Source: Octopus vulgaris (Eukaryota). From it: a DNA stretch of 64,000 nt. Every line of letters starts with the position of its first letter. Position 1 is the first letter of the stretch. The position numbers were made by a program, and so were the translations under genes. Below are positions 4,601 to 55,660 of this stretch, one piece after another. The notes beneath the pieces are model-generated. The model saw only the letters and a list, made by a program, of their open reading frames with translations. It had not been told where the DNA came from and did not search any database. The stretch spans positions 35,898,001 through 35,962,000 of the forward strand of contig OX597823.1 of the NCBI GenBank assembly GCA_951406725.2. The letters run 5' to 3'.

Positions 4601-4769
4601 AGAGCTTTCTGCAGAAAAAGGAAGACCCCTCTACTGCTAACGCTTTCACCACAACAGGAACATTTGTAACAAAAGCAGAAGCAGCAACATCAACAAAAGC
4701 AGCACCAACAACAGTTGAATCAAGAGCAGCAGCATCAAAATATCAGCAACAGCACGAAAAGGAACAAGA

Positions 4770-6822
4770 AAAATGTCTGCCGAACATGTGCTGGAGGGCC
4801 CGCGGGCTGTGGAGTCTGGTCTCGCTGATGGCAATGATACGCAGATTCTATGACTTTATGTCATTTAATAGGTAGCTTTGTTTCCAAGGCGACCCCGAGC
4901 CACGTACATTTACACTACCTATTTTGAGCATGTTCTTATCGAAAGTTGTGTTTTACACACGAAAGGAAGACGAAAGACAGAGTCACGGTCCGAAAGTTGC
5001 TTGTCCTTCACCTCACTGACTTATCCCAGAAGGCTTTTGTATAGTTTTTTTAGACAGGTATTTTTGAAATCTCCCTACTGCATCCGGGTAGGGAGATTCC
5101 AGTGTTCTGTGTGTGTTGTGTGTATGATTTTAATGTGTTGTGGTGGTGTTGTGCGTTGGTGATTCTTTGTTTTGGTATCGTTTTTTTTGTTATGTTGGTG
5201 TTTGACCTAATGTATTCCATTAGGTCTAGATTGTTGGTGTTTATAGCTATCAACATTGCTGGGGCATTTGGTGTTAGTGTGTTTGTGTTGATGCTTTTGT
5301 TTTCTGCGGATGTTTTGGTTTGTCTGCTTCTCTATTCTTTTTCCCCCTTTCTCTGCTTCTCCCTGTAGCCAATCCTCTGTGTCGTCTTCATCTGACCACA
5401 TGTCGGAGGAATCAGAGAGTGGGAGAGGAAGGGTATTTGGGTCTATAGGTGATTTTGTTGTTGGTGCTGGTTGGTGACAGTTGGGATGTGATGTATGGGT
5501 GTTGAGGGCTGGGATATAAGTCTTTTTGGTTTTCTCTTCTTCCTTTGGAGTTTTTGTTGGTGGCGGTACTGCTTCTGTTCTTTGTGGAGCTGGTGGTGGT
5601 GGTGTTTGGTTGGGCGGCAGGCTTGTTGGTTGCTGATGTTCCTTCGTTTATTTGTAGAGCTATTTAATTAGTTGTGCATAGGGCGTTGTGGATAACAGTG
5701 CTGGGTTTTTTCTCGGTTTTTGGTTTTCTTATTGTTGTTGTTCGTGATCTTGTTGTCGTTATTGTTTCTGTGTTAGTGGGCAACTGATTTTCAGATGTGA
5801 TTCGCTACCACAAAAGTAGCAACGTGGCTTTCTGCCTACGACGGCCACATGCAAACTCGAATCGTCTGTCAGTTTGATTTGATGTGGAATTTTTCCGAAA
5901 TTCATCGGATCAATTTAAGCAAGAATTTCAACTCCTTAACTAATCCAATTTTGCTGGTCCAGGACAGCGATTTCCAAGATATGGATTTCGTCCTCGATGT
6001 CGTAACAAATGGCAGACACAAGCCATTTTATTTCTATTTCAGGGGTCACATTTTTTATTTTTATTTTTGTGACCCTACGACCAAGGTATGTAGGGATCAT
6101 TATTAAGTTGTTGCATTCAAAGAACTTTTTGGAGAGGGCCTTGGCTCTTTCTTCACTGTTGAATCTAACTTCGATCGTGGCAAATCTGTTTCCCCTCGTG
6201 ATGTAGTCTTTAAAGGCCCATATTGGCCTCAAACAGTTTTCTACTTTTTTTGAGTGGCCGTTTTGTATAGTTTTGTTTTTAGGTTGTTTTGAAAATAATT
6301 GTTTTTGAGATTTTTCTGTGATGCTTTGTGGTGTCTGTAGTTGTATGGTGTGTTCGTCTGTTTTAAACATTGTCTTGCAGGTAGGCAGTTCTTCCTTCGA
6401 AAAGAACATGATTTTTTTTCTTTTGCTTTGAAGTTGCAGCAAAATTGTTTTGAGTATTCGTGTTGGTTGTGGTGGTGATGGCGGTAGTGGTGGTGGCAGT
6501 GTTTATAGTAGTAAACGTATTTGTTTCTTTGTATCTTCTAAAACCTGTGTATGTTCAAGCGGAACGGATTTAGCTTCCCTCGCCTCTGGCAAGTCGATGG
6601 CTTCCTGGCTTGGCTTAGCCATTTTCGTTTTGAATATGGATAGGAAACCGAAGAAAATTTTTTTAAATTTTGGTAATAGCAGTAATTTGCTATTACAAGA
6701 TTTACTGGTGTTGAAGGAGATGGTATTAAACACCTACTTCACAAAAAATATTCCACAAATTTACAGTACTTCTACACACACAAAAACTTACTTGGAGCCG
6801 GTTTTTCTACAGTCCATTCAGG
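4770..6822 (-). mobile_element. Tx1/L1-clade LINE, degraded ORF1 plus the start of the ORF2 APE endonuclease
   Basis: ORF1 pieces (5936-6442, PTYLGRRVTKIKI). CCHC knuckle CYFCGSESHLKISC at about 5779-5821. ORF2 starts at 4931: MLKIGSVNVRGSGSPWKQ..IIAISETRL, then is lost. Confidence 0.8.
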
Positions 6823-6837
6823 AGAGGGAGAGAGAGA

Positions 6838-8450
6838 GATTTCTTTATTGGCCACGCAGGGCTGAACACAGAAAGGACAAAATACAAAGTAGGTTTCCTT
6901 TTTGAGAAGAAGAGAAGGAGAAAAAAATGGTTCGAGTTCCGATCAAAAGGGATCATGAAAATAAAAAAAAAATGGAGCCCATCAATAGGGATCGTGTATC
7001 ACAGAAATGTCAATATAAAAAGAGAAAACAGATTAGGTTTGTCCGTAGATAGAAAAGCCTACGGAAAAGACCACAGGAACCTTGGGCAATAGTGTCATGC
7101 AAAAAGTAAACACATTACAGTAAGTGGCTCTCTGTTTTCCTTTCGTTTTTTGTGTTTTTTCTTTTGGTTCATAGGATTACGCTCAAGCTGGCTCCGTCAT
7201 TCATACGTGCCATCCTTGCTACATTCACCCATCTTTTTGTGAAACATTCCCTAGACAAAACTTCCCTCTGTACTCTCACCTTCCTCTTCAAGTGATACTT
7301 GAAGTTGATGAGAGATTAACCAGAGAGTAAAGTGTTTGTCTCTAGACCTTTCAGACGCGTCCACCATACACATTCTTTCGCGATAGCCACAAGTACGATG
7401 AAAATGGCTCTTCCTTCCCGTTTCAAGGAAGGAGGCGCGACAGTATTCCCGATAGACTAGGTTTATAAATCGACTCGTCCCACACGCGATAGCAGTTGTT
7501 CGACATAGGCCCACAGGTCGGAAATGGTTGGACACTGTATGAGTGCGTGCAGGACGGTTTCGTCGCTCTGACCGCATCTCGGACAGGTCGGCCCTGTGTT
7601 TCTCGAGCCATGCCTGTAGAGCTTATCCCGAACGGGTAGTGCTTCTCGATAGCACTGCCATGCCAGGGATCTCTGGAAGTTGTCCATAGGTCCCGGCCCG
7701 AAAGTCGTCTTGAACAGGCGGGTCAGGTATTTTTCGTCAACGCCTAGGTTCGCCCCGAGATTGTCGTCGTACCTCCCCTCCACTAATCCCCTATAGAATG
7801 CTGTGGTTGTGTTAAAGTCGCTCAAGGTCGACCCGGGACGGCATAGTTACCTGAGAGCAACGCGACATTTGCGGTGACATTCGCCCTTCCTCAGACCCTT
7901 TTGATCCACGACTGCAGTTCGAACATGGAGACGAGCTGCGGGAAAGCACGCCTCACAAACGGCGACCACACCTGTTCCCCATTCGTCTACGTAGAGCCGG
8001 AGATGTTGCAGTCTCAGCGTGTCTGAACATCATCATAAGTCTGATCTCACTTATGGCTATGATTTCTAACTTGTGTGACTTTATGTCACTTAACAGGTAC
8101 CCTTGTTTCCAAGAGGGCCCCAAGCCACGCACATTCACACAACCAATCTTGATTATAATCCTAGTGAATTAAAACACAAACGAAAGGAACAGAGGGTTAC
8201 TTACTGCTCGAAAGTTTTTGCTTTCCCCTCCTTCGGTTTGTCGTCGAGGAGATCCCAATACAGTTTCTTTGCAAGGTATTCTTGGCATTTACTAACCGCA
8301 CTGGGGAAAATTCCTTTTAGTGTGTGGTGTAGACTTCGTGAAATGTGTAGTATTTGGATGTGCTCCGGTGGTGTTGTGCATGAGTGATTGTTTTTATGTC
8401 ATCTTTTGTTAGGTTTGTTTTTGATTTGATATATTCCACTGAATTTAGGT
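6838..8450 (-). mobile_element. Tx1/L1-clade LINE with internal ORF2 deletion (APE N-terminus fused to C-terminal zinc-binding region) and intact 3' UTR
   Basis: 7953-8138 NVRGLGPSWKQGYLL..IIAISEIRL joined to the post-RT region. 7463-7825 WQCYREALPVRDKL..CPRCGQSDETVLHALIQC (zf-RVT-like). 3' tail ..TGGCCAATAAAGAAA. Confidence 0.82.
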
Positions 8451-8502
8451 AAATAATCCTTCGAACAGACGGTCAGTAGCGACGCCTGCTGGCTTCGGCT
8501 AC

Positions 8503-12828: not shown

Positions 12829-14730
12829 TCAATTTGAAACCGAAATAAGCCGTTTTTCTTTGAATAAATCTGATGGTTCCAGCTCCATTATACCATTCCA
12901 TTTATCAATATGCAGATTTATAAATGGATAATATTTCGTAGAAATTGGCTGTTTTTCGTTATTTGCATGAAACCCTCCTTTCAAAACAGAATTTCGGCTA
13001 AACACATCGATTGTCACTTCGTGTATATTAGACAATGGACTGGGTGACAACTCAACCCATTTGTTCCCATTTAATATATCATAGACAAAAACTCTTGTGA
13101 TAAATGGTGCTACATGCTCTAACAAAAACAGTTTCGAAGAATAAGAACAATAGTGAATAGAGTCAAAATGTGCCGCAAAATAAAGAATATTTTTTGAAAG
13201 TGTCACGTTGTCAGGGCGGAGTGGGCGGTAAGTGGCGATGGGTATATTGGCAGTTATGGTATTGTTTCGATCGAGTATTGATGTAGCTGTAAGTGAGCCA
13301 GACTTACACTGATCTATAAAAGGTTTACCCAGATTTTCTTTAATGATATGTATGTCTTTGTTGCGGAAAAGAATCATGCAGTTTACTGACGCAGCCCAAG
13401 ATTTCGATTCAAAAATAATTCTGAATCGCTTATTTAAACTGTCATATCGTAGAATAACGAATTTATCGGCATTGAGAAGATCGTTATCACATTCGCAGAA
13501 GGTCAGAAAAATATAAATTGTATCAAAGATTTCTGGGTCCGCTTCTATTTTCATTTTGCAGTCACCTTTCCAATCACGAAACACAATGCTAGCCGAGATT
13601 TTCCAAACTTTTTCGTAGATTTTAATCTGTAATCTGATCCCTTTACCGAATGCTGTGCAACATGCAATATGTATGCCAGTATTCAAACAAAAATACTGGC
13701 TAACTAGTAATCTCTCCACCGTGTGGGGAGTTGATATGAAACAAGCACACCAGGATATCATATTCAACATTTTTATTTTATGTTCACATTCGTCTAAAAT
13801 CACTATATCGCTCCCAAGAATACCAATTACTTTGCTGGTCAAAGTCGCAAGTATTTTCATCCATCTATTTTCTGCTGAGAAATAAATAGCTAAATACTCT
13901 CTCTCTTTCAACACCACCACCCAACTGGCATCAAAAAATGGAGTCATTTTTTCGTTTATTTTGTTATTATAATATAATCGCTTCAAAAAAGATTTTTTTT
14001 CAGATTCACCTTCGTTCGTTTGGTTCATTTCTTTAATCACATGCTCTAGGTACATTTTGGGGATAAACTTCGAGAAATATTTATGAGCATTTGCAAGTCT
14101 TTTTGAAAAATCTTCCTCTACCCAAGAAATAAGGAACCTGTAAGCATTTGTCACTTTCCTTGGAAACGGTGCATGGTCCAACAAGTATGACAATTCTTTA
14201 TCTGCGGTAAATTTAAGCATAGTCATCATCCTTTCCTCCCAAAATAATTCCTGCATTAAAATCAAAGCCATTTTTTCAATTTCCCAAAAATGAAACTTTC
14301 TCGCAATTCTCCAAATTTTTAAGCAACTGGTAGGTCTAATTCTAGTCAAAAGGAATTGTTTCGTGTGAAGCAGCAATCGTTTAAATGAGCAATAATGACA
14401 GATTTTCAAAATCCCTTTGATGTTGTAGTTACCTAGACAGATTTGTCGCTTATAAAGGTAGTTGATTATGCTTTCTAAGTAAGAGAAATTACTACAAACA
14501 TGTGAGAGGTCTATATAAATATGATGACCGGAAGCCACTTTCAGCTTTTCCTTGAAGTAATCACTCTCTGCTGCCAGAAGAAAGCTATGAACAGATATTT
14601 TTCGGGAGTTTATTTGCAAAGTTACGTCGACGTACTCCGAGTTCAGATATTGAAGGTGCAGTTTTTGAATGATGCAATTTTTAGAGATGTCACTAAACTC
14701 CAACAACTGTTGATTGTAGACCGCCATCAT
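12829..14730 (-). CDS. BTB/POZ plus BACK domain protein (Kelch-like/KBTBD-related) with divergent C-terminus, single coding exon
   Basis: 633-aa uninterrupted ORF. BTB motif YVDVTLQI..VHSFLLAAESDYF..IINYLY. BACK-like SCLKIWRIA..LISWVEEDFSKR. Splice acceptor TTTTCAG (exon from 14743) 13 nt before the ATG. Confidence 0.88.
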   Translation of the reverse strand: MMAVYNQQLLEFSDISKNCIIQKLHLQYLNSEYVDVTLQINSRKISVHSFLLAAESDYFKEKLKVASGHHIYIDLSHVCSNFSYLESIINYLYKRQICLGNYNIKGILKICHYCSFKRLLLHTKQFLLTRIRPTSCLKIWRIARKFHFWEIEKMALILMQELFWEERMMTMLKFTADKELSYLLDHAPFPRKVTNAYRFLISWVEEDFSKRLANAHKYFSKFIPKMYLEHVIKEMNQTNEGESEKKSFLKRLYYNNKINEKMTPFFDASWVVVLKEREYLAIYFSAENRWMKILATLTSKVIGILGSDIVILDECEHKIKMLNMISWCACFISTPHTVERLLVSQYFCLNTGIHIACCTAFGKGIRLQIKIYEKVWKISASIVFRDWKGDCKMKIEADPEIFDTIYIFLTFCECDNDLLNADKFVILRYDSLNKRFRIIFESKSWAASVNCMILFRNKDIHIIKENLGKPFIDQCKSGSLTATSILDRNNTITANIPIATYRPLRPDNVTLSKNILYFAAHFDSIHYCSYSSKLFLLEHVAPFITRVFVYDILNGNKWVELSPSPLSNIHEVTIDVFSRNSVLKGGFHANNEKQPISTKYYPFINLHIDKWNGIMELEPSDLFKEKRLISVSN

Positions 14731-29381: not shown

Positions 29382-30643
29382 CGAGGGGCGTTCAATAAGT
29401 AATGCCCCTGACCCACTTCCCATAGCAGTAGAGCAACGAAACTTGGCACAGTTATTAGTCTTTTTCTACATAGGAACCACCCAGAGTTACGCATTTCTCC
29501 CATCGTTTGATGCAGCTTTGGAGACCGTTTTTGTAGAAGACCCCAGCTTGGTCCTCCAACCACGACGTCACTTCAGACATCAAGGCTGCATCATCTGGGA
29601 AACGCTTTCCTTTCAAAAACAACTTCATGGCTGGGAAGAGGTGAAAATCAGAGGGTGCAAGGTCAGGAGAGTAGGGGGAATGGGAAATGAGTTCATAGCC
29701 GCACGCCTGTGCTTCTGATCTGGCGACACGCGAGTTGTGGACCGGAGCGTTGTCCTGCAGGAGGAAGATGCCTTTGCTGATCTTACCCCGCCTCTTGATT
29801 TTGATAGCTTCTCTTAATTTCATCAAAAGTGAAACATAATAGGCTCCTGTAATTGTGGTACCCTTAGCCAGGAAATCTGTCATCACTACTCCGTCCTGGT
29901 CCCAGAAGACTGTGAACATGACCTTGCCAACGGAGGGCTGCACCCTTGCCTTCTTTGGAGGAGGTGAGTCACGGTGCTTCTACTGCATTGACTGGGCTTT
30001 GGTCTCTGGATCATAGTGATGGACCCAGGTTTCATTCTGTGTAATCAGTCTTTTGAAAAATTTTGCCTCCTCTTCTTGGCACATCTCCAAATTCATCCTC
30101 GAGCACTCGACGCGTTCTTGCTTCTGGAAAGGTGTGAGCAACCTGGGAATCCATCTGGCAGACACCTTTTGCATATGCAAATGGTCATGAATGATAGTTT
30201 CCACAGACCCGGTACTAATCTTGACCTCATGGGCTATTTGGCGAATAGTTATGCGTCGATCTTCCAAAATGGCAGCCTCAACTTGACGGACAGATGCCTT
30301 ATCAATGGCAGGAGGGGGTCGACCAGATCTGGGAGCTGTTTCCACAGAGTTCCGAACATGTTTGAATTCACGATTCCAGCATTTTACAAGGTCATATGAT
30401 GGGGCATCATCACCATAAGTTACTTTGATTCCATCAAAAGTCTCCCGTGGTGTGCGTCCTTTCAAATACAAAAACCAGATCACTGCTCGACACACAACAG
30501 GCTCCATTTCACACTTGACTCAGTTCAAACACCTGTAATTCGCCACTTAATTTGTAGAGATATGAATAATTGCACATGCAAAATTTCAACTAGATCAAAC
30601 AACTGCAAGTGGGTCAGAGGCATTACTTATTGAACGTCCCTCG
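29382..30643 (-). mobile_element. Full-length mariner (DD34D) transposon with TIRs and TA TSD
   Basis: TIRs CGAGGGGCGTTCAATAAGTAATGCCCCTGACCCACTT at both ends (few mismatches). TA at 29380-29381 and 30644-30645. Confidence 0.95.
29455..30507 (-). pseudogene. Mariner transposase, 350 codons, one premature stop and first catalytic Asp changed to Asn
   Basis: ORFs 30507-29980 and 29943-29455 are in frame across a TAG (expected TGG in SMQW). WIPRLL, TQNETWV (expected D), QDNA-x34-D, YSPDLAPSDFHLF. Confidence 0.92.
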
Positions 30644-34533: not shown

Positions 34534-36963
34534 TCACATCGACAATGCTCTTCTCAATACGTGTGATGTACCAGTTAAGACAATCTTTTGCACTTCTTGC
34601 AGGGATGGTAAGCCAGGGATCATTCTCATATAATTTTCGGTTCCCTTCTTGATCATTCCTAGTGCTCCTACGATCACTGGTATTGTAACCGCCTTGAGAT
34701 GCCACATTTTCTCAATTTCAATGAGTAGGTCTTTATATTTTCTGAGCTTGTCAAACTCTTTCGCTGAGATATTATGATCACAGGGGATGCTCATGTCGAT
34801 CAATAAGCAAACTTTATTGTTTTGGTCTTTCACAACAATATCTGGTTTATTGGCCTTGATGGTTCGGTCTGTATGTACTGGAAAGTCCCACAGAATGGTT
34901 ACATTTTCTCCTTCAGTTACAGCCTCAGGGTGGTGATTATACCACTTGTCGGCAGTTTTGATATTGTAATACCGACTTATTAGCCAGTGGAGATATTGGC
35001 CAACTCTGTCATGTCTTAATTTATACTCCACTGGTGCTAAGACTTTACATCCAGAGATTAGGTGGTCCACTGTTTCAATCATGTCGTTGCAGAATCGGCA
35101 TTTTGGGTCTGCTCCATTTTTCATCACATTGGCCTGGTAGTTCCGGGTTAATAGGCTTTGGTCTTGAGCAGCCAGGATGAAACTTTCGCTCTCTGCTTTT
35201 AGCCTTGAGCTCCGTAGCCACTGATGGGTTTGCTTCTGGTCAACATCAGCTTGTTTGCTGCGGGTCACATATTTGCCGTGCAGAGGTTTCTCCTCCCACC
35301 TATCAGCCAATTGCTCGTGCGCTTTTTTCATTGCCATCATTTTCACCTTCTTTGCAACAATAGTTGCCGTACTTCCCTCGGGTTGTTCAGTTTGGGTATC
35401 CTGCACGAGATCAATAGCAAATTTTTTGCTTTCCTTGATGATAGAATGAAGCTTCTTTCGTCTCTCGTGATTTTCCACGAGCTTTAGCATCCAGTCATTC
35501 GATATTTCGAGATATTTGGCCAGTCCAATTGTGGTTGTTTTGTAAGCTAGTTCAAATTGGATCAGGCCTCGACCTCCTTGGGCTCTGGGAAGGTAAAGGC
35601 GATCTACGTCTGCCTTTGGGTGGTGCATCCTATTACAACTCAGCAGCTTGCGTATTTTTCTATCTATATTCTTTACTTCACTCATATTCCAGTTCAACAC
35701 ATTGTAGCTATAAGTAACAACTGGAACTGCTAAGGAATTTATAGCTAACACCTTGTTACGTGCATTTAGTTCAGATTTCAGGACTGCACGAACTCTCCTA
35801 TAACATTCCTTCCTGATTTTCTCTTTCATGCTTGCATGCTGAATACCAGAGCCTTCATTTATCCCTAAATATTTGTATGTTTGTTCTTGCTCAAGCTCTC
35901 TTATGACTGTGTCAACATCTAACACGACTGAATTTGTGGTCTTCACTTTCCCTTTCTGGAAAGTGGCCTTGGCACACTTCTCAAGTCCAAACTCCATCCC
36001 GATGTCATCGCTGAATGCTTTCACGGTGCGCAATAGGCCTTCAAGTTCATTATTGTCTTTACCATAAAGTTTTAAGTCATCCATATAAAATAGATGGCTT
36101 ATTTTTTTATTGGCAATTTTATACCCATACCCTGTTCTGTTTAATTCACTTGTAAGGGGTATTAGGGCTATGCAGAATATTAAAGGTGAAAGTGAGTCAC
36201 CTTGAAAAATTCCACAGTTGATGTTTAGATTTTCTGAGGCAAGTACTCCATTAGAGTGGTATAATTGGAGATTCGTATTCCACAACGACATATTGTGCTT
36301 CAGGAAGTTTGAAATCACAGGGGAAATTTTGAAGATGTCCAGCGATCTCAAGATCCATGGATGCGGTATACTGTCGAAGGCCTTTTTATAGTCAATCCAT
36401 GCGGTGCTGAGATTTCTGCGCTTGTTGTGACAGTTCTCAAGGATCATACGATTGATTAGCAGTTGATCTTTGCATCCGTAAGAGCCTCGGCGGCACCCTT
36501 TTTGTTCAATGGGGAAAATATCGTTCTTCTCCATGAATGCATATGTTTTCTCCGCCAGGATAGATGTTAGGATTTTATACGTGGTGGATAGACAGGTTAT
36601 AGGCCGATAGTTTTTTGGAAGGTTGGTTTCGTTATTCTTTGGGAGTAGGTAAGTAATGCCACTTGCTAACCATTCAGGTGTTTTCTTTGGGTCTCTCATA
36701 ATTCCATTGAGCAGCTGAACTAGCTTACCGTGTGCGCACGGGAGCGATGCGAGCCAGAAATTCGGCACCCTATCTTTACCGGGGGATTTCCAATTATGGG
36801 CCTTCGTGAGTGCCTTTCTTAGGTCTGCTATTGTGATGTCTTCCCATGCTTGTTGTTGTAAATTTTGGTAGGATCCTTCAGTTTGTATAATCCAGTCTGC
36901 ATTTATGTTGTACGTCTTCTTGTCACTCCAAATCCTTTTCCAAAAGTTTTGAACTTCTTCCAT
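34534..36963 (-). CDS. Reverse transcriptase plus RLE endonuclease part of the Dong/R4-like ORF
   Basis: 809-aa open frame with the RT motifs and PD..D..K endonuclease residues. Confidence 0.9.
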   Translation of the reverse strand: MEEVQNFWKRIWSDKKTYNINADWIIQTEGSYQNLQQQAWEDITIADLRKALTKAHNWKSPGKDRVPNFWLASLPCAHGKLVQLLNGIMRDPKKTPEWLASGITYLLPKNNETNLPKNYRPITCLSTTYKILTSILAEKTYAFMEKNDIFPIEQKGCRRGSYGCKDQLLINRMILENCHNKRRNLSTAWIDYKKAFDSIPHPWILRSLDIFKISPVISNFLKHNMSLWNTNLQLYHSNGVLASENLNINCGIFQGDSLSPLIFCIALIPLTSELNRTGYGYKIANKKISHLFYMDDLKLYGKDNNELEGLLRTVKAFSDDIGMEFGLEKCAKATFQKGKVKTTNSVVLDVDTVIRELEQEQTYKYLGINEGSGIQHASMKEKIRKECYRRVRAVLKSELNARNKVLAINSLAVPVVTYSYNVLNWNMSEVKNIDRKIRKLLSCNRMHHPKADVDRLYLPRAQGGRGLIQFELAYKTTTIGLAKYLEISNDWMLKLVENHERRKKLHSIIKESKKFAIDLVQDTQTEQPEGSTATIVAKKVKMMAMKKAHEQLADRWEEKPLHGKYVTRSKQADVDQKQTHQWLRSSRLKAESESFILAAQDQSLLTRNYQANVMKNGADPKCRFCNDMIETVDHLISGCKVLAPVEYKLRHDRVGQYLHWLISRYYNIKTADKWYNHHPEAVTEGENVTILWDFPVHTDRTIKANKPDIVVKDQNNKVCLLIDMSIPCDHNISAKEFDKLRKYKDLLIEIEKMWHLKAVTIPVIVGALGMIKKGTENYMRMIPGLPSLQEVQKIVLTGTSHVLRRALSM

Positions 36964-37038
36964 GGGAGGGGGTCTTTAACGGTTACTTTCTCCTTCCCTA
37001 TTTCTCTGTAGAATTTTTTGGCATTGGATGTGAACAGC

Positions 37039-38223
37039 TTATTTTGCTTGTAAAACTTGTTTCTCTTTCTCAAATCTTCGTATTCTTTGGGCTTTTGCTT
37101 GGACTTTTTGTTTCAGCGTTTCTTTTATTGATATCAGTTCTTCTCTTGGTGAGGATCCAAATTTTCTCTTCATCTTTCTTCCTGTTCTGGATCTTACATC
37201 ATTTCCACATATTAGTTCATTTAATATTGATATTTCCCCTCTCATAAATTCAATCTCTTTTTCAATTTTACTTCTCCAGGTTTGATTTCTTCCCAGGTTT
37301 TGTTTTCTTTGTTTTTTCGGGGGCATACAGCTGGTTTCAATTGCCCTAGCAGAAGCGTAAATAATTTCATTTAACTCAGTAAAATCAGGTTTTAATTCTC
37401 GTATTATTTCATTTGTTACATAGTTGCCAATTTGGATTTGTTTTTTATTTTGGTTTGTATTTGAGAGTTTATGAAGCGGTTCTCTATCATTCATACTTGT
37501 ATGTCTTACAACTTCAAGCGTATTCAGGATTTTCTGCCTCATTTCTGCCATAGACTCTCTGTGTTCTTCAGCAAATGCGAGATCTTGAGTTACTGTTGTT
37601 TTTTCGTTTTCCTGGCTATCTTTAACAGGTACAATAGAATTTCTTGTATCTTCAGGCCTTTGCGTACTTTGGTCAGATGGCAGTCTTTCAATTAAGCCTC
37701 GTGGCAGGCTATACTGTTCATCTGATTCTTCATTTCCTTTGTGTCTTATATTTATGTCATTTTCCGTTGCGTGTTTGATCGCGCTTATTTCACTGTCTGT
37801 GAGCCTGTTATTTCTAAAGATATCCCTCCTCACATTTGCTAATTTGTTCTCGTCCAAATAGGGCCTACTGTCTTGATTCCGTGTTCTCCATATACTGTAA
37901 GAGTTTGCGGTGTGTCTCTCTTTAGATGGCCTACCTAATGCATAGTAATAAGCGTATATTACTTCTTTATACTCTTCTCGGGTCCATTTGTTCCGCTTAC
38001 ATTTTTCTTTCTCTGGTGGTTGTGGTGGTGAACTTGGAGGGCTCGAGTTGGGGGATTTCCTGTTCAAGTGACCATCCATGTCCGTATTCGGAGAAGAGTT
38101 TGTGCCAGTTGATGACTTTTCGATCCCAGGCTGGCTCTTCCCTGGGGGACGCGCTTCCAGATTAACCATAGGACAAGCGATTTGGTATACTGATTTAGTT
38201 TTCCTTTTAGTTTCCAAAAACAT
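37039..38223 (-). CDS. N-terminal part of the Dong/R4-like ORF
   Basis: 394 aa; KWTREEYKEVIYAYYY..W Myb-like motif; separated from the RT part by compensating +1/-1 indels. Confidence 0.8.
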   Translation of the reverse strand: MFLETKRKTKSVYQIACPMVNLEARPPGKSQPGIEKSSTGTNSSPNTDMDGHLNRKSPNSSPPSSPPQPPEKEKCKRNKWTREEYKEVIYAYYYALGRPSKERHTANSYSIWRTRNQDSRPYLDENKLANVRRDIFRNNRLTDSEISAIKHATENDINIRHKGNEESDEQYSLPRGLIERLPSDQSTQRPEDTRNSIVPVKDSQENEKTTVTQDLAFAEEHRESMAEMRQKILNTLEVVRHTSMNDREPLHKLSNTNQNKKQIQIGNYVTNEIIRELKPDFTELNEIIYASARAIETSCMPPKKQRKQNLGRNQTWRSKIEKEIEFMRGEISILNELICGNDVRSRTGRKMKRKFGSSPREELISIKETLKQKVQAKAQRIRRFEKEKQVLQAK

Positions 38224-39046
38224 TTTGGTGCTACGATAATGTTATCATTTTTTAGCTTTGATTGATCGTGGGGAGACGGCCATCATTGCCGTTACAATTA
38301 TAGTCGTACCATTATAGCAGCCGTAGTCGGCTTATTATTGTTATTATCATCACCATTACCATCACTATCATCATTATCACCACCATTACCATCATCATTA
38401 TCATCATCACCATCACCATCACCACCATCATCATCAATGATATTGTTTTATGTGTAGTCACAGCAGTATCTTATTATTGTTATTTTTGTTTTTTTATCAT
38501 TATCACCATAACAGTAGTGTCTGTCTGTCTCGTTGGCTGGCTTGGTGGTTGGCAGGCTGACTGTCTTCAACGCCAGAGTTCTTGCCTGTCAAATAATACT
38601 TTCATATTTGGTTAACAATAGAGCCGAGGTGAGGTTTGTGTTGATTGAACTATTTGAGTGTGTGTGTGTGTGTGTGTAGATAGATTATCAGCACTATTAC
38701 TATCATTACTATCATCATCACCATCATCACCATCACCATCAGTGATATTTTTTTTATTTTTTTTTTTTTTTTCTTTAGGTGCGGTCCTATCGGTCAAAAA
38801 AAGTTCAGATGTTTACTACTATTAGGCTTAAGAAAAATTAAGGAAGGGCTGTTCTGTATTGTTTGTGAATAGAGAAGTTGTGTTCGACCAGAGAGAATCT
38901 TAGCATCATCATTTATTTTTCCACGTGCGTTTGTGTTATTGCAATAAAAAAAGTGTTTGTATATTTCCTGTAAGGTAATATTGTGGAGGTTGAAGTTGAC
39001 TTTTCTAGAGATGTTTGTATTATTATTATTATTATTATTATCATCG

Positions 39047-40159: not shown

Positions 40160-40778
40160 AAGGCGGCGAGCTGGCAAAAACGTTAGCACGCCGGGCGAAA
40201 TGCTTAGCGGTAGTTCGTCTGCCGCTACGTTCTGAGTTCAAATTCCGCCGAGGTCGGCTTTGCCTTTCATTCTTTCGGAGTCGATTAAATATGTACCAGT
40301 TATGCACTGGAGTCAATATTATCGACTTAATTCGTTTGTCTGTCCTTGTTTGTCCCCTCTGTGTGTAGTCCCTTGTGGGCAGTAAAGAAATAAGAAACGT
40401 TAGCACGCCGGGCGAAATGCTTAGCGGTATTTCGTCTGTCTTCACGTTCTGTGTTCCGCCGAGGTCGACTTTGCCTATCAGCCTTTCGGGGTCGATAAGT
40501 TAAGTACCAGTTGCGTACTGGGATCTATCAAATCGGCTGGCCTCCACCCCAAAAATTTCGGGTCCTGTGTCTATAGTAGAAAAGAAGCGTTAGCATGCTG
40601 GTCGCAATGCTTTGCAGTATTTCGTCTGTTTTTTACGTTCTGAGTCCAAATTCCGCCAAGGTCGACTTCTCCTTTCATCCATTCGGGGTCGATATATTAA
40701 GTACCAGTTGCGTACAATGGTCAATCTAATCGACCCCCTCCCCAAAATTTTCGGGTCATGTACCTAGAGTAGAAAAGA
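40160..40778 (+). mobile_element. Three head-to-tail copies of SINE family B
   Basis: CGTTAGCAC/TG..GCCGAGGTCGACTTTGCC..AAGTACCAG recurs near 40180, 40397 and 40588. Confidence 0.85.
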
Positions 40779-40844
40779 TTATGAATAAGCTAACCAGAAA
40801 TAAACATAGTTTCGGCGCATATGTGTGGTAACGAGCTTGCTTCC

Positions 40845-42611
40845 GGTGTATAGTTTGTCAGTCGAATTCTTGGTTTTGCGAGTAACACACGTGTTCTTTC
40901 TTTTTTGCTGTCTCAGCGCTGTGATGTTTTCCCTCTTGTTTAATGGAGGGGCGTCGGGTGAGGTGTTGCGAAAATTTGAATTATTCTTCTTCAGAATTTG
41001 TGAACTATCCTTCTTCAGACTTGGTGTCGTCTGAGGAGTGTTTGAAGAGGATTGTTGAAGCAATGGAGACAAAGAATTATGCAGAGGCGACGAAAGAAAG
41101 AAGCGAAGATGTAAGACTGGAGGATATAAGCAAATTCTATGAAATGATTAAAAGGGAAGAGGACGAAGTGAAGGTGTTCTCCCGCAAAGAAGTGTTAAAA
41201 GAAAAGAAAACGAGAAAACAATAATTTACAGAATATACTCGGTAGCAGCTAGGAAGATTGAAGTCATGACGACGACTCAAATAGAACAGGCTCTGAAACC
41301 AACCTAGCAAGGAATTTCCTACCTAGCCAGAGGAAAAAAAATTGAAACAGTGGAGGTGCGGTTTCGGGAGGTTGCTACAGTCAGGCTGCATTCAGCAACA
41401 CCGTTGAGAAGTGATGAAGTGGTGCTTCTACCCGTATACCTCGGGAGACGTGCTTCAAGGATTAGGTAGAAGACATACCCCCAGAAGTGGATGTAGCTTG
41501 GCTGGTAGCTGCCACACTGCTAGGCATGGAGGAGAAGGTGGTGGTCCTCCGAGTCCCCAGGGCACCCCGCAGCATCTGGCAAGGACAAAGCCTCAATATG
41601 GTGGTGAAGTCTGCCGTGGAAGATATCGAAAATATGGTAGAGACAATCACTGTCGGAGACGCAACACAGAAAGTGCTATAAATGTGGCCTGAAAGGCCAC
41701 ATTAGAGCGGATTGTCCTCCACTACCTGTGAAAGCTAAGGAGAGACAAGAGAATGAGAAAGTGGCTGGTGATCCACTGCCCGTGGAGGTTGGGGAAAAGG
41801 AGAGTGAAGTGGCTCCACAGACAAAGACCAGTACTAGCGTCGAAGAAGAGGAGATGGACAATGAATGGGAAGTAGTTGGGAGAAAGAAGAGAAAAAAGGC
41901 ACACGCGGTAAAGAATGACCCGCATCCCACACCCATTTTACCCCGACAAACACAAGCACAGAAGAATCCCAAATTTCCCCACCCTCGCCTTTCAAAAACA
42001 TATTGTACAATGGCGAAAATGAAGAACTATATGGCAAAATAGACTTGTGGACAATGCTATAAAAGTGGATGTATCAGGAGTGAAGTGGGTGTCCGAGTAC
42101 ATTCGTTGTGTAGTACAGACACACAATATACGTCGGAATTGAAGGACTATGAGGAAAATCAAGACTATAAGTGGTGGGTCAAGAAACTGGATACCAGCTC
42201 AATGTCGAAACAAGTAAGTTTGCAGGATATATTTTTTTTAAATATAATGTAAACATTCTTCGGAAGGATGGTAATTAGCTGTCGTCAAAAAGGAAAAAAT
42301 AAAGCATTATATAATATATATTTCGTTTTTGGATTTGGTTTGCAAGATTCTTTATGTGAGTTCTTGTGTTAAATTATAAGGCACAAAAAGAAAATGACTC
42401 TCCCTAGACACATTATAAACTAGTTTTTAAAAAAGGTTGTATTAACAGGTTCTATGAAGTCGCTCGGAGGTGGCGGCCGAACGTTTTCATTTCATCTTTC
42501 ATTATATTAATTCATTCTTTCCATTCGTTTTGTTTTGTTGGGTTTTTTTTGTCCCCACCTTGTGCTGTCCCCTCTACGTAAGGCCTTCATGGCCAATTTC
42601 ATAAATAAAGA
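40845..42611 (+). mobile_element. ORF1-only Tx1/L1-like retroelement (HAL1-like architecture) with 11-bp TSD, inserted in a SINE head
   Basis: Decayed ORF1 (VEVRF, LPVYLGRRASRI, PPEVDVAWLV, CYKCGLKGHIRADC at 41674-41715) homologous to 5936-6442. 3' tail TGGCCAAT..AATAAAGA. TSD AGCTTGCTTCC at 40834-40844 and 42612-42622. Confidence 0.8.
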
Positions 42612-42936
42612 AGCTTGCTTCCTAACCACATGGTTCAGGGTTCAGTCCTGCTGCGTAGCACCTTGGGCAAGTGTCTTCTATTGACTCGGGCCGACAAAAG
42701 CTTTGTGAGTGGATTTGGTAGACGGAAATTAAAAGAAGTCCGTCGTATATGTGTGTGTGTGTATGTTTTGTGTCTTTGTTTGTTCCCCCACCACCATCGT
42801 TTGAGAACCGATGTTGGTTTGTTTACGCCCCCGTAACTTAGCAGTTCGATAGAATAAACAGCAGGCTTACAAAGATTTCTTCGACTAAAAAAGCAGTGCT
42901 CCAGCATAGTCACAGTCAATTGACTGAAACAAGTAA
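42612..42936 (+). mobile_element. SINE family C, 3' portion (5' portion at about 40813-40844)
   Basis: Joining across the TSD restores GTGTGGTAA.AGCTTGCTTCC.AACCACATGGTTCAGGGTTCAGTCC. Confidence 0.85.
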
Positions 42937-44659: not shown

Positions 44660-47600
44660 CTTCAGACAGATAATACTTTCCTTAAGATCTGCGCTGTGCC
44701 CAATAAGACTGCTTTTTGCAAGACATCAATCTTGCATAAGATTTCCAGCTGTCTTAAGAAGTTTGAAGTTTCAACGGGATTGAGCCCAACGCTCCGATCA
44801 CCACTGGTATCACTTTTACATTACCCTTTCGCATTCAATACAATCTTGCCCCTTCCACTTTCAATTCGGAGTACTTGGTGCTTTTTCAACCTCTTTACTC
44901 ACAACATTCATGTCATTTGGTATGGCTACATCAATGATCTGACAGTATTTGTCTCTCTTATTCAATATGACAATATCCGGCCGACGGTGTTCGATTACAC
45001 GATCCGTTTGAAAATCATAGTCCCAGATTATCGTTACTTTTCCATCCTCCTGCATAACTTTACATGGCACATGCTCATACCAGTTCTCTGTTACTTCATA
45101 TTGGTATTTACGGCATAAGAACCAGTGAAGCTACACGGCGCTGGAATTCGTTTTGTGCAAGGCTCTCACATCAACTTACCAATTGGGTCACATTTTCCAC
45201 GCTCTTTCCACAGAGTCTTCATTTCTGTGTGTCAGAAGTTTTATATATGTTGCACTTCACTGACTTGGTTTCGAGAGCCTGGTCTTGTGCAGCAATGATC
45301 AGGCTTTCGGTGGTACACTTCAAATCACCTCGCTCAAGTTATGCCCACGATTATGTATTATCCTTAACGTTAGTTGTATTCCTTTCAAATTGTCCCTGCA
45401 TTCTCATTTCAAAAAGGTCTTCTTTTCCCTTCTCAGATCTTTGATTAAAGTCTTCCTTGCCCATCATTTCCTCTGCATTTACACCCATATCTTTCGCGGC
45501 ATATTGTAGCAGGTCTTCATCACTATTTATCAAATACTCGGCAAGCGTTCTCCTTTCATTCTTTATACAATAGTCTATACTAATTAGTCCTCTTACTCTT
45601 TATATACAGTCTGTTTATGTTTGCTTTAGGGTGTAGTACCCCATGCAGCGCCATCAACTTTCTTGTCCTTCTACCCAGTGTTGATATTTCCTCCTTAGTC
45701 CATTTGAGGATGGGTGCACTATATCTGACCACTGCAACTGCCCAGATATTCATCGCGGTAATAAAATTTTTGGCATTCATGTTTGATTTCAACACTATCT
45801 TCACCCTTTTTTGATACGCCTCGCTGACCTTGACTTTCATTTCTCTGTGTAGAATGTCATCCAGCTCCAAAATCCCCAAATATCTATACCCACTATCGTC
45901 GGGTTCACCAAACCTGATGGTAACCGCAGTCCTCTGCAGGGTGTTTTCTTCCCTCTTTTCATATAAGTACTGAGCATTTGGTAATTCCAAATTCCATACT
46001 GATGTCCCTACCATACTTCTTGACTGTCTTGGTTAAGAAATCTATCGGTTTTTCAGATTTCCCACACAATTTCAGGTCATCCATAAACAGAAGATGGTTC
46101 AATGATGGGCCTTTCTTCTCACGTCGGTAACCATCTTAACTTTCCTAAGTGTCATTGTTATGGGTATTAGTGCAATAACAAATAGTAACGGAAAAAACGA
46201 GTCACCTTGAAAGATTCTCCTTTTAATATTAACTTCTCCAAGGAATACATTATTTGAGTACAACTTGGTTTTCCACTCTTTCATGCTATGTATCAGAAAA
46301 TTTATGATGTTGTCAGCAACACCAAACATCTGCAGGCATTCAACTATCCAAGAATGCGGTATCACGTAATATACCTCATCATATAACATGCCTTCTTAAA
46401 GTTAATCCAAGCCATAGACATGTTTGTATGATGTTTTTTTTTTACAATGCCTCAAAACTGTTTAATCAGTGACCAAGTGATCCTTGGTACCCTGAGAACT
46501 CTTCCTACATCCTTTTTGTTCCCTTGGTAGTATTTCTTCCGGTGCCAGGATAGTGTATGTCTTTGCTGCACATATTCCAGTGAGTATCTTCCAGATTATG
46601 TTTAGGCATGCTATGGGACGGTAGTTTCCCACGATATTCCCTTTTCTTCTATGTTTCATTGTAAGCGTTGTCCTCCCAGTCACTATACACGCTGGGACTG
46701 CTCCTTTCAGGACACACTCATTCAATTGAGCTGCTAGTCGTTCATGCACCGAGTGGCATCTCTTCAGCCAGAAGCCATGAATCCCATCTGGTCCGGGGGG
46801 CTTTCCAGCTAGGCACTTTACCCACTCGTTCTTTAACATCTTTAACAATATTCCTTTGTTTCTTTCCTCCTTATAATTCTGTCTTGATAGTTCTTATCCA
46901 CATTGCATCCCTTTTATGCACCACATTGTTTCCCTATAATCTGCTTCAGAACTCCTTGACATCATTAGCAACATTTTCCCCATTGTCTCCTTCTAACGTT
47001 TGGAAGAATTGCTTTGGGTTATTTTTGAACAATCTGTTCTCGCTTGCTTCTTTCTGTTCACAAATCTTCTGATCAGGCTTTTTGCCATGATCTACTATTT
47101 TAACTGCTCTATTACTGCATCAAACCCGTTCTTCCGTATTTTATATTTCTTTAATTTTTCTTGGTCGGTCTTTTTCCTATTTTTCCAGTTTCCTTTTAAC
47201 CATTGCTAAATTTTTCCTAGACATTGTCTTGCTCGCATTATATCCCTTTCAATGCATCGTTTCCACCATGGTTCTTTTGCTCCACCATTTTTTGTTCTCT
47301 GAAGTTGTAATGTCTCCTCAACAAGTAGCGCAATAACCCGGAGAAGATTCCTTGTTTGTGTTATGTCCTCCGACTGGATGAATGGTATGAAAGTATTTAT
47401 CGTTTGTGTTACTTTATTTATCATACTCCTATCTACCCTTCTCATATTCATGAGGACTTTTTCTTCTGGAGCATTCATCAAGTCGGTGAGTCGTCTTTGA
47501 ATTTCAAGCAATTCATTATCTAATTGCTTCATTTCCCCTGTATGTCCACCTACCAAAGTATCAAGGTTCACTGTATAACGTTCCTGCTCCTCATCCTTAA

Positions 47601-48200
47601 CAGCCTCAAGACCATTTCCCTGTTCCTCCTGTCTACTCTTCTCTCTGTTTTCAACTCCAACCATCCTTTGTAACTCATCCGCAAGGTCTCTCAGGCTCTC
47701 ACTAATCAGAGATATTTCTACTCCAGTTAAGTATCCCTTTCTCCTAATTACTCTCGCTTGATTCATTAGTTTATTTTCTGACATTGGACACATGTCCTTT
47801 TCCATCCAAAATTTCAAGGTACATCGGCCTGGTCCGCAACTCTTTTCCAGCTTTGCTCTTTCATGACATTCAATAAGTGTATCGTACTCTTCCTTCGTCC
47901 GCTAATGTCTGTTTTTGCGCACACCGTGTATGTGATCTTTTGTGACATAACGACCGCCCGAAGCCAGATCACTGCCCCTGATGTAGGCGGTTTCGGACGT
48001 GCCTGGCGGGAAACCTTCACCATGATCGGCTTTAATTCTTTCATTGTTGTGTTGCATCATGATTTCATGTGTCGTTCGTGGGTTCCCACGGGAGTTGTTA
48101 TTGAGATCCCATTTGTAAAGGGAACTGGTTGCTTCTTTACACTTTTGGGGTGCAACTTGGGTGCAACACAATTTCCTTTCTTTTTGTTTCTAGAAACTAC
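44660..48200 (-). mobile_element. Old, heavily mutated near full-length RLE-type (Dong/R4-like) LINE
   Basis: Collinear fragments: ENKLMNQARVI, PWWKRCIE, PGPDGIHGFWLK, NYRPIACL, IFQGDS, LFMDDLKL, YRYLGILE, LHPKANINRLY, WD..QTDRVIEHRRPDIV; many stops and frameshifts. Confidence 0.88.
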
Positions 48201-50029: not shown

Positions 50030-52621
50030 TCAGTAGTTTTATTTTTATAGCGTGCTTTCACTTCACTACCGAGCGCAGCTCTGTGTGCCTTGGGTATGTG
50101 CTGTGATTTGTTGTGATGCTCTGATGGTTATTGTATGGAAAGTGTTCTGCGTAGGATGTGTGCAGTGCCTAGTAGTGCAATTTTCTGTATGTTATATGTG
50201 TTTGTAAGTCCTGGTGTTTTTGTTATGTATTTGTCTGAATATTTTTTTATCATGCCTAATGCACCTACTATGATAGGAATTGTTTCTGTTTTCAGGTTCC
50301 ACATTCTAGTTATCTCTATTTCCAGGTCTTTGTATTTTGAGAGTTTCTCCATTTCTTTTAGAGACACGTTGTCATCTGCCGGTATTGATACATCAATTAG
50401 AAAGCATTTTTTTTCTTCATGATCTCTGACAACTATATCTGGTCTGTTGGCCTTAATTTCTCTATCTGTGTGTATCGGCATATCCCAGAGTATGGTTGCT
50501 TTCTCGTTTTCTGTGATCTTTTCTGGTGTGTGCCTATACCATCTTTTTTCTGTTGTTATTCCATAATGTTGGCATAGCTTCCAATGTATGTAGGTTCCAA
50601 CTCTGTCATGTCTGTGAATATATTCCTTCTTAGCCAGGACTGGGCAGCTAGAGATAATATGATTTATTGTTTCTTGTCCATCTCCACATATTCTGCAGTT
50701 ACTTGTAATATTTCTTTTCATTACATGCTTTTGGTAATTTCTGGTGGGGAGGCTTTGGTCTTGTGCTGCAATTAAAAATCCCTCTGTTTCTGCTTTGAGT
50801 CCTGAGCTTCTCAACCATTGCTGGGATTTTTCTTTGTCTATTTCTTTTGCATTTAGTTTAGTGCAGTATTTACCATGAAGGGGCTTTTCTTGCCATCGTT
50901 TTATCATGGCTCGTTGCTGTTCTATTTTTAGTTTGGATTTCATTTGTTTTATAGCTTTTGTTGTTTCTTCATCATCTTCTTCTTCTTCTTTGTGTTTATT
51001 AGGTGGTATGATTTCTTGTTTGTATTTGTCAGCTTCCTTAAATACTGAGAACAGTTGTTGTGTTTTGCTCGTGTTTTGCTGCTATCTGGATCAGTGTTCC
51101 TTCCTTCTGAAGTAGGTATTTTTGCAGTCCTATGGTGGTTATTTTATAGTAGTTTTCCAGCTGTATAAGGCCTCTACCACCTTCTATACGTTGTATATAT
51201 AGTCTTTCTATGTCAGATTTTGGGTGATGCATCCTAGATCCTGTCAGTATTTTTCTTGTTTTCCTATCTATTTTGGACAGTTCATTTCGTGTCCAGTTAA
51301 GGATATTGTAGCTGTAACTTATAACTGGGACAGCTAAAGTGTTGATACCTATTATCTTGTTTTTAGCATTGAGCTCTGTTTTTAGTATTGATCTAACTCG
51401 TCTATAATATTCTTTTTTTATTTTCTCTTTCATTTGTGTGTGTTGTGTCTTATCTAGTTCATGGAGTCCTAAGCATTTGTAAGTTTGGCTTTGGTCTAAT
51501 TCTTTTATTTCATTGGTTTTATCTAGTGTGATGTTGTTACTCTTAACTAGTTTTCCTCTTTTCAGGGTTACTTTGGCGCATTTTTCTAATCCAAATTTCA
51601 TATCTATTTCTTTGGTAAATCCATGAACTGTCTTTAATAGTGTTTCCAGCTGTTTGTAATTTGCAGCGTATAGTTTTAGGTCATCCATATATAAAAGGTG
51701 GCTGATCGTTTTGCCGTAACATTTATATCTGCATCCCGTTCTATTTAGCATATCAGATAGAGGTGACAGTGCCAAGCAGAAAAGGAGTGGAGAGAGCGTG
51801 TCTCCCTGGAATATTCCTCTTCTAATGGGGATGTCTTTGGTTTTCATGAGTCCCTCTTTTGTTTGGAGGTGTAGGACTGTTTGCCATTTATTCATAGAGT
51901 GCTCTATGAATTTTATGATTGTTGGTGCTACTTTGTTAATGGCTAGTGTTTCGAGGATCCATGTGTGGGGGATGCTATCAAACGCCTTTTTGTAGTCAAT
52001 CCAGGCCATACTGAGGCCTTTCTTCTTTCTGTGGCTGTCTTCAGTTACGGCTTTATTAATCATTAGTTGATCTTTACAGCCATATGAGCCCTTGCGGCAT
52101 CCTTTCTGCTCTTCTGGGGACAGTTTGTTTTCGTCCAGGTGCTTGTTCAGCCTTTGCGATATCACTGCAGTAAATGCCTTGAACATAGTAAGGAGGCAGG
52201 TTATTGGTCTGTAGTTTTCTGGTTTTGTTGTTTCATTTGATTTGGGAATTAAGATGGTTTTCCCCTTCGTGAGCCATTCAGGCATTGTCTCTGGCTCTGC
52301 TAGTATGCTGTTAAAGTTTTCAGCCAGCTTTTTGTGCATTCCTGTTAGATATTTCAACCAGAAGTTGGGGATCTTGTCATGCCCAGGTGCCTTCCAGTTG
52401 CTTAGTTTTTGCAGTGCCTGGGTGACCTCTTCAGTTGTTATGGGGGTCCAAAGTTGTTCAGATGCCGAGTTTATTATTTTCATACTCCTTTTTTTTGGCT
52501 GTTCGTTCGCCGACCATATTTCTCTCCAGAATTCTTCCAATTCTTCTGCCGTTGGTGCTGCAGTGACTTCTATTTTATTTTTGCCCAGTTCTTGGTAGAA
52601 CTTTTTGGGGTCGGAGTTGAA
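50030..52621 (-). mobile_element. 5'-truncated Dong/R4-like LINE, copy A (RT plus RLE, one frameshift)
   Basis: ORFs 52540-51038 (YMDD) and 50943-50128 (CRIC..HIISSC, RPD..D..K); flanked by (TAA)n. Confidence 0.93.
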
Positions 52622-52830
52622 TTAGAACTTTTTGGGGTCGGAGTTGAATTAGAACTTTTTGGGGTCGGAGTTGAATAGAACTTTTTGTGGTCGGAGTTGA
52701 ATAGAACTTTTTGGGGTCGGAGTTGAATAGAACTTTTTGGGGTCGGAGTTGAATAGAACTTTTGGGGGTCGGAGTTGAATAGAACTTTTTGGGGTCGGAG
52801 TTGAATAGAACTTTTTGGGGTCGGAGTTGA

Positions 52831-52831
<1 letters not shown>
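52596..52831. repeat. 26-bp tandem repeat, 9 copies, derived from LINE coding sequence at the 5' truncation point
   Basis: Unit TAGAACTTTTTGGGGTCGGAGTTGAA; sense encodes FNSDPKKFY. Two junctions carry one extra T. Confidence 0.95.
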
Positions 52832-52917
<86 letters not shown>

Positions 52918-53472
52918 GAGTGAGAGAGTAGTGCATGCCATCAAAGTGACACTGGGGTAAAATATACGAAGCCAAGTATACCCATCATGACTACCCATCT
53001 GATAAGGGTACACCAGGCACATGCATCGCAAACATATGTGCGCGACATGGTGATCTCATATCAAGAAAAACAGCACATGACCTTGCAGGTGGGGTCCAGT
53101 TAGAATTTTTTTCTGATCGAGTAGACCATCCCACTCAAAAGGTCCCTGAATAAGGATTGTTTAAGGATGTTGAACGAAATACCCATGTTTACAGAGGTGA
53201 ATTATTCAAACCCGAAAAAATCCCTCTCAACGCATGGCTATGATGCTCTCCCACTACTTCTGCTCGTGATCAGAGATGCACATATCGTCAGCCACTAAGG
53301 GACATGATCAACTGGTTAAGGTCAAACAACTGACAAGCAAACCTATGGTATTGAGCAGAATATTTGCTATAGCCCATCTTTTATACCAAGACAAACCAGT
53401 GTACATGATAACACTTCCAATCAGTTAAGATCAGAAGTCACGAGAGCCACTGCCTGGTACTGCATCAGGGTA
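52918..53472. mobile_element. Unclassified noncoding segment between (TAA)n tracts, probably a LINE 3' UTR fragment
   Basis: Complex sequence bounded on both sides by TAA arrays like the neighbouring LINE ends; no recognisable ORF. Confidence 0.4.
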
Positions 53473-53483
53473 TTTTATCATTG

Positions 53484-53566
<83 letters not shown>

Positions 53567-53570
53567 ATTA

Positions 53571-55660
<2,090 letters not shown>

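Follow-up and report, generated by a model that had tools for sequence, protein, structure and literature searches.

Dewa, a lineage of Tx1 LINEs, occupies tRNA arrays. Many other Tx1-clade families also show a target preference, and in the available sections of PMC4494074, where a family counts as target-specific if one sequence type makes up more than 20% of its flanks, Keno targets U2 snRNA, Kibi and Koshi target TC and TTC repeats, Tx1L inserts in Tx1D of Xenopus, and Tx1-Mar and SINEU-3 of crocodilians target a transposon and stack around the target-site duplication (TSD); no SINE is named there as a Tx1 target. Non-autonomous LINEs that carry ORF1 are represented by HeT-A (Jockey), HAL1 (L1) and Ag-Sponge (CR1) in the accessible text of PMC5786205, which names no Tx1-derived member among ORF1-present elements, and HAL1 (half-L1) is treated in the accessible part of PMC3627910. 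Two papers on octopus repeats give L1-Tx1 as a class only in their available text (PMC13282606, PMC8967140). Neither a SINE-targeted nor an ORF1-only Tx1 element was found in the freely accessible papers searched; Repbase, subscription journals and the supplementary files of PMC4494074 or PMC13282606 may contain such families.

Here we describe an ORF1-only unit that interrupts a SINE in a 64-kb stretch of Octopus vulgaris DNA (the window, 64,000 nucleotides, to which all coordinates refer). This copy is dead, with stops and frameshifts in its ORF1 and no evident function of its own. On balance we think it probable that the unit belongs to a multi-copy ORF1-only non-LTR element, likely an offshoot of a Tx1-like LINE, that is copied by a partner and prefers one base of the SINE. 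The locus is laid out as follows.

40814 to 40844, plus strand: head of the host SINE, 5' portion, with the A-box-like motif partly deleted (alignment with three intact copies; motif scan)
40834 to 40844, plus strand: left TSD, AGCTTGCTTCC (exact repeat)
40845 to 40942, plus strand: 5' end of the element and putative 5' UTR, the first ATG being at 40943 (5-7 variant contigs per run at place 40863)
40943 to 42042, plus strand: broken ORF1 with a predicted tandem RRM region, a CCHC knuckle and a low-complexity tail (homology for 41114-41897; putative ends)
41668 to 41718, plus strand: CCHC zinc knuckle (Pfam PF00098, E 5.9e-5, 23.4 bits against a cut-off of 20.8)
42043 to 42311, plus strand: post-ORF1 region, common to other copies, with no detectable ORF2 (contig tables; profile searches)
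42312 to 42410, no strand assigned: nested 99-bp piece of a very high-copy repeat (depth 649,473 in run X1; joints across it; CATTATA at 42305-42311 and 42411-42417)
42411 to 42611, plus strand: 3' tail with a T-rich tract, a GGCC hairpin at 42582-42594 and the end AATAAAGA (alignment, folding)
42429 to 42482, plus strand: conserved tail block, possibly a weak vestige of the ORF2 end (42439-42466 common to at least 43-55 contigs per run)
42612 to 42622, plus strand: right TSD (exact repeat)
42623 to 42875, plus strand: remainder of the host SINE, with a B-box-like motif near 42638 (BLAST, 75-76% to two intact copies; alignment)

The 11-bp TSD proposed in the initial annotation is borne out by exact copies of AGCTTGCTTCC on either side of the ORF1-only unit (40834-40844 and 42612-42622), which is the sole exact 11-mer common to the 300-bp regions around both unit ends and does not occur again in the 64-kb window. 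A longer duplication was rejected, as the exact match ends at 11 bp; the extra AAGA may belong to the tail or to the target. The 1.77 kb originally given for the unit is indeed bounded by the TSD, but 99 bp of it are the later nested repeat, leaving about 1.66 kb for the unit proper. This nested piece is missing from other copies of the element, carries its own 7-bp duplication (CATTATA) and has no other match in the window. Assembly error at the 5' junction is unlikely because an identical contig of run X1, which may be the assembly's own sample, bridges it (40700-40955, 0 differences). A second X1 contig, at half depth and with three differences in 246 bases, departs from the window at 42298 and continues for 1611 further letters; it is probably an allelic version whose nested insertion differs from this one or is longer. 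Rfam matches in the unit region were limited to low-complexity miRNA hits.

When the two flanks of the unit are rejoined they form one SINE, of a family with four copies within the 64 kb, three of them intact. The left flank starts with GGCGCA at 40814, and the five SINE pieces align together. Named octopus SINEs include OK, OR1 and OR2. Scored against A- and B-box motifs, each of the three intact copies carries both an A-box-like and a B-box-like motif, agreeing at 9 and at 8 of 11 positions respectively; the two are spaced 43 nt start to start in all three, as in a tRNA, and the insertion point lies between them. The earlier description of an insertion between the A and B boxes of a SINE's tRNA head therefore stands for the split SINE and for the motifs of the intact copies, but the A-box-like motif is partly deleted in the copy carrying the unit, and ARAGORN found 0 tRNA genes in the whole window and Rfam no tRNA match on the one intact SINE copy scanned; motifs and geometry are what would point to a tRNA origin of the head. 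Directly upstream of the host SINE, at 40160-40778, members of another SINE-like family are arrayed in tandem.

In a tRNA gene the anticodon arm lies between the A and B boxes. The insertion site, between the two box-like motifs, is where that arm would be, as expected if the anticodon-arm position of tRNA genes were what the partner element's endonuclease recognised, and the SINE head were hit as a tRNA look-alike; Tx1 elements at small-RNA genes do exist, Keno at U2 being named in the available sections of PMC4494074. We nevertheless consider this improbable, as neither program scored the head as a tRNA and both of the junctions known for the family bear the SINE's own sequence.

The ORF1 of Tx1-clade elements combines an RRM with a CCHC knuckle, and this combination, with the RRMs predicted from a fold model, recurs in the element and its relatives. 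The homology to a nearby Tx1 ORF1 noted initially was recovered by tblastx against the ORF1 at 5.8-6.25 kb (three pieces, E 1.4e-16), and the CCHC knuckle by Pfam, but the frame is not intact: stops occur at 41222, 41305, 41467, 41679 and 42040 in the homologous frames, with at least two frameshifts. The frameshift at 41464 is absent from 7-17 contigs per run. A word-index protein search with an 86-residue ORF1 piece matched 0 of 823 candidates, and HMMER later gave 115 relatives with the same piece at E <= 0.001; a genome-contig search returned 0 relatives for the ORF1 piece and 0 for the protein P0001. Nine of the relatives were checked, seven being Octopus gene models and two Logan proteins. 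One relative, P0034, was modelled on a 40-sequence alignment with a pLDDT of 79.7, and its top PDB matches are tandem-RRM proteins (E 8e-6) with low whole-chain TM-scores; Atlas leads for the ORF1 fall in zf-CCHC and ZCCHC3-like clusters. The family ORF1p is accordingly modelled, and predicted, to comprise two RRM domains and a CCHC knuckle. No Pfam family of L1 ORF1 matched the element pieces or 19 relatives. The stretch 41990-42300 was also tried as an ORF1 C-terminal domain and found no support, with 152-160 of 200 shuffles as good. Among the proteins retrieved, P0005, P0034, P0042, P0056 and P0072 are transposon pieces with misleading labels, the mislabelled set including an octopus-type ORF2 that goes under the name of a Herbaspirillum MAG protein, an ORF1 annotated as EPM2A-interacting 1-like, and gene models in which WD40 or LDL-receptor domains are fused to ORF1. 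Many octopus "uncharacterised" CCHC gene models would, on this view, be transposon ORF1s.

The window contains further LINE pieces with which the unit can be compared. Three decayed Tx1-like pieces are clustered at 3500-8500: a plus-strand ORF1 at 4048-4747; a minus-strand ORF1 at 6397-5516, with an APE-like start after it near 4925; and, upstream and head to tail with the latter, a minus-strand copy with (TC)n at the end of its tail, at about 6846. In this last copy, at 8150-7172 (minus strand), an APE-like N-terminus of about 40 residues, recognised by eye, is joined directly to the post-RT part of ORF2. A neighbour sharing the ORF1 matches zf-RVT (E 3e-8), and the relative P0003 matches L1 ORF2p at E 3e-50 against 4e-24 for R2; such matches place the neighbours that share this ORF1 in an L1-group lineage. 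The ORF2 set of the Tx1 group (APE, RT and C-terminal zinc finger) is absent from the element and partly present in the neighbours that share its ORF1, and it is from these neighbours that we infer the Tx1 label of the element. Elsewhere in the window, near-complete or broken LINE ORFs that appear RT-like and of another family by eye lie at 34534-38241, 45580-47901 and 50128-55262 (minus strand), a mariner-like transposase lies at 29455-30519 with integrase- or Helitron-like pieces in other places (also by eye), and an uninterrupted frame of 633 codons at 12829-14730 (minus strand), of BTB/Kelch type by eye, is possibly a single-exon gene or a retrocopy.

That the unit lacks APE and RT, as first reported, agrees with our searches. 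Pfam gave no match to APE, RT or zf-RVT in the element, and profiles built from 7 and from 31 related ORF2 pieces detected no ORF2 domain in it below E 0.2; the 7-piece profile scores the neighbour, itself a member of that profile, at E 1e-130. The stretch 41990-42300 had suggested a decayed ORF2 C-terminus through a "CGQC..HSLC" look-alike, which was discarded with 50-140 of 300 shuffles equal and an HMM E-value of 0.23. In a post hoc PSSM comparison with the ORF2 end, the top score among 1711 windows belongs to an 18-codon stretch at 42429, with 11 of 500 shuffles equal and an HMM E-value of 0.77; it hints weakly that the final ORF2 codons may persist as a vestige.

Contigs from four sequencing runs were placed on the unit at 80% likeness and covered all 30 bins, although the runs are not four independent tests because the same paralogues occur in all of them. 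Outside the ORF1 core, 5-26 variant contigs were found at most listed sites in each of the four runs. Summed depth is roughly 10-25 times that of a single locus at 41856-42263 and over most of 41040-41311, depth being no copy number, and reaches a similarly rough 100-200 times single-locus depth in the ORF1 core, where the distant relatives behind the excess may carry ORF2. Three distinct joints, among the 12 of 73 rows listed, pass from post-ORF1 sequence into the tail with no ORF2 in between: 42297 to 42411 with 8 letters between (runs X2, X6 and X7), 42297 to 42430 with 22 letters between, and 42285 to 42437 with 40 letters between. A joint from 42084 to 42429 was seen in three of the four runs. 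At least three other copies thus link the post-ORF1 region straight to the tail with at most 40 letters between and no ORF2, which is the repeated absence of ORF2 at one junction that had been put forward as a check. The contigs considered comprise 24 of 2,626 loose ends and 15 of 218 joints, and copies with other flanks or with ORF2 may lie among the remainder.

These joints bear directly on whether a full-length Tx1-like LINE lost its ORF2 after insertion, its further copies having arisen by DNA duplication or by hitch-hiking with the SINE. RT loss by internal deletion does happen, because the neighbour with the (TC)n tail has lost its RT in this way, and the probable X1 allele with 1611 letters beyond 42298 could be read in the same sense. 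Loss after insertion is unlikely, however, because at least three other copies share the ORF2-less junction; the paralogous pieces moreover differ from one another by roughly 14-19%, the letters at the 5' junctions differ, and the weak 18-codon hint is the one candidate remnant of ORF2. We therefore rate this explanation as very unlikely. We are confident, by comparison, that an ORF1-only family exists, and the initial proposal of a non-autonomous element mobilised as a unit gains from the related contigs along its whole length as well as from the shared junction. Mobilisation in trans by a Tx1-like ORF2p appears highly likely.

The 3' tail offers a possible link to such a partner. Its end, GGCCAAT..AATAAAGA, resembles the tail that the neighbour carries at about 6850 (95.5 in DNA alignment, against 93.5 for the best of 300 shuffles), in keeping with the Tx1-type 3' tail that had been assigned to the unit. 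The GGCC hairpin at 42582-42594 has a z-score of -1.97, with 8 of 200 shuffles equal, whereas this copy's larger tail stem-loop scored no higher than shuffled sequence, at z 0.03 and 0.27. Eight upstream loose ends of the tail block, among the 12 of 49 listed, are AT-rich by eye, and the contig evidence suggests that several sister families carry one common tail; no ORF2 partner with a matching tail was present among the 31 ORF2 pieces. The neighbour with the similar tail end is inserted in (TC)n, not in a SINE, and the AAGA end is therefore not special to SINE targeting. With AAGA closing the tail, AAGAAGCTTGCTTCC, which is the empty-site sequence of one SINE variant, is recreated at the 3' junction. 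We also considered whether the tail carries an exact complement of the landing site and rejected this, since exact matches in the element stay below 9 bases and those of 7-8 bases fall in ORF1 or in the nested piece.

Evidence on target choice comes from two known junctions, both at the SINE site. Besides the junction in the window, which holds no second SINE-inserted copy, one contig of run X2 joins 42623 to 40853 across 7 intervening letters. In it the element has the same 5' end, equally far behind a sequence ending in GCTTGCTTCC, and it is not an allele of this copy because only 3 of 8 junction letters agree; it is probably a second insertion at the same SINE base. A plain SINE head would fit its left flank at 21-22 of 30 letters and tail plus TSD at 14-17 of 30, and given the better fit of the plain SINE head, the placement at 42623 suggests that the contig is probably a tail-to-head stack. 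The target preference is in this way shown only in part, by two insertions, and the possible specialisation on a SINE raised at the outset receives one further junction at the same base. Searches farther afield yielded 31 metagenome loci with a tail-plus-target pattern, none matching element or SINE beyond 21-26 bases and all dropped as chance, and 0 matches to the SINE pattern in viral contigs.

Two junctions are few, and with four copies of this SINE family in 64 kb, and a SINE share of 11.6% in the genome of O. vulgaris (PMC13282606, available text), an ORF1-only family with no strong target, or at most a preference for a short motif, might have struck a SINE through SINE density. Against this, the chance that one of about seven 5'-complete copies would hit the same base again at the SINE density of the window is about 2e-4, and target preference is common in Tx1-clade families as far as the available sections of PMC4494074 go. 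Insertion without a strong target is consequently unlikely in our view, and a strong preference for this base of the SINE quite likely.

Nicking of the target followed by target-primed reverse transcription is established LINE biology. Under our preferred reading, of an ORF1-only family copied by a partner, a master copy would have been transcribed and translated into an ORF1p, predicted to hold two RRM domains and a CCHC knuckle, which may coat its own RNA. The ORF2p of an autonomous relative would then bind the conserved 3' tail, and its endonuclease would nick the SINE around AGCTTGCTTCC, with target-primed reverse transcription leaving the 11-bp duplication that is seen at the locus. The AAGA end of the tail restores the empty-site AAGAAGCTTGCTTCC, so that later copies might land there and stack, as one contig joint would indicate. 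This copy then decayed and gained its nested insertion. We lean slightly towards a still broader picture in which the SINE serves as a dedicated landing pad, a LINE aiming at one base of its Pol III head and ORF1-only parasites riding along, restoring the site and stacking.

If that picture is true, the locus would represent nested parasitism on three levels, and within the papers searched its "half" elements would be the first aimed at a SINE and the first of Tx1 derivation. Should the preference hold genome-wide, the SINE would join the safe-haven targets of sequence-specific LINEs, and the Tx1 group the few clades that have spawned ORF1-only passengers. The family would then also provide a natural system for studying both the retention of ORF1 in cis by a passenger and target switching by APE endonucleases, (TC)n being the site of sister lineages whose tails are similar. 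Each part has precedent, in HAL1 on the one hand and in Tx1-Mar and SINEU-3 on the other, and the combination was not encountered in the literature searched outside Repbase.

Compared with the HAL1-like class, the element is alike in having ORF1 only, in being multi-copy, in its TSD and in needing ORF2p in trans, and its TSD and A-rich 3' end are marks of retrotransposition. It differs in that its ORF1 is of the tandem-RRM and CCHC type found in octopus Tx1-like LINEs, with no L1 ORF1 match in Pfam, and in its apparent single-base SINE target; having no recognisable L1-type ORF1p, it would not be a HAL1 in the strict sense. With Keno, Kibi, Koshi and Dewa it would share membership of the sequence-specific Tx1 lineages, although these are autonomous and target host genes or microsatellites, and the likeness to Kibi belongs to the neighbour at 6.85-8.5 kb, which ends in (TC)n. 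Tx1-Mar, SINEU-3 and Tx1L resemble it in a further respect, namely that Tx1-group machinery is aimed at another transposon and that a non-autonomous passenger goes to the same target, where it stacks in tandem around a TSD. Their targets, in contrast, are DNA transposons or LTR elements and not a SINE, and whereas the passenger SINEU-3 is a non-coding SINE, the element described here is one that codes for ORF1.
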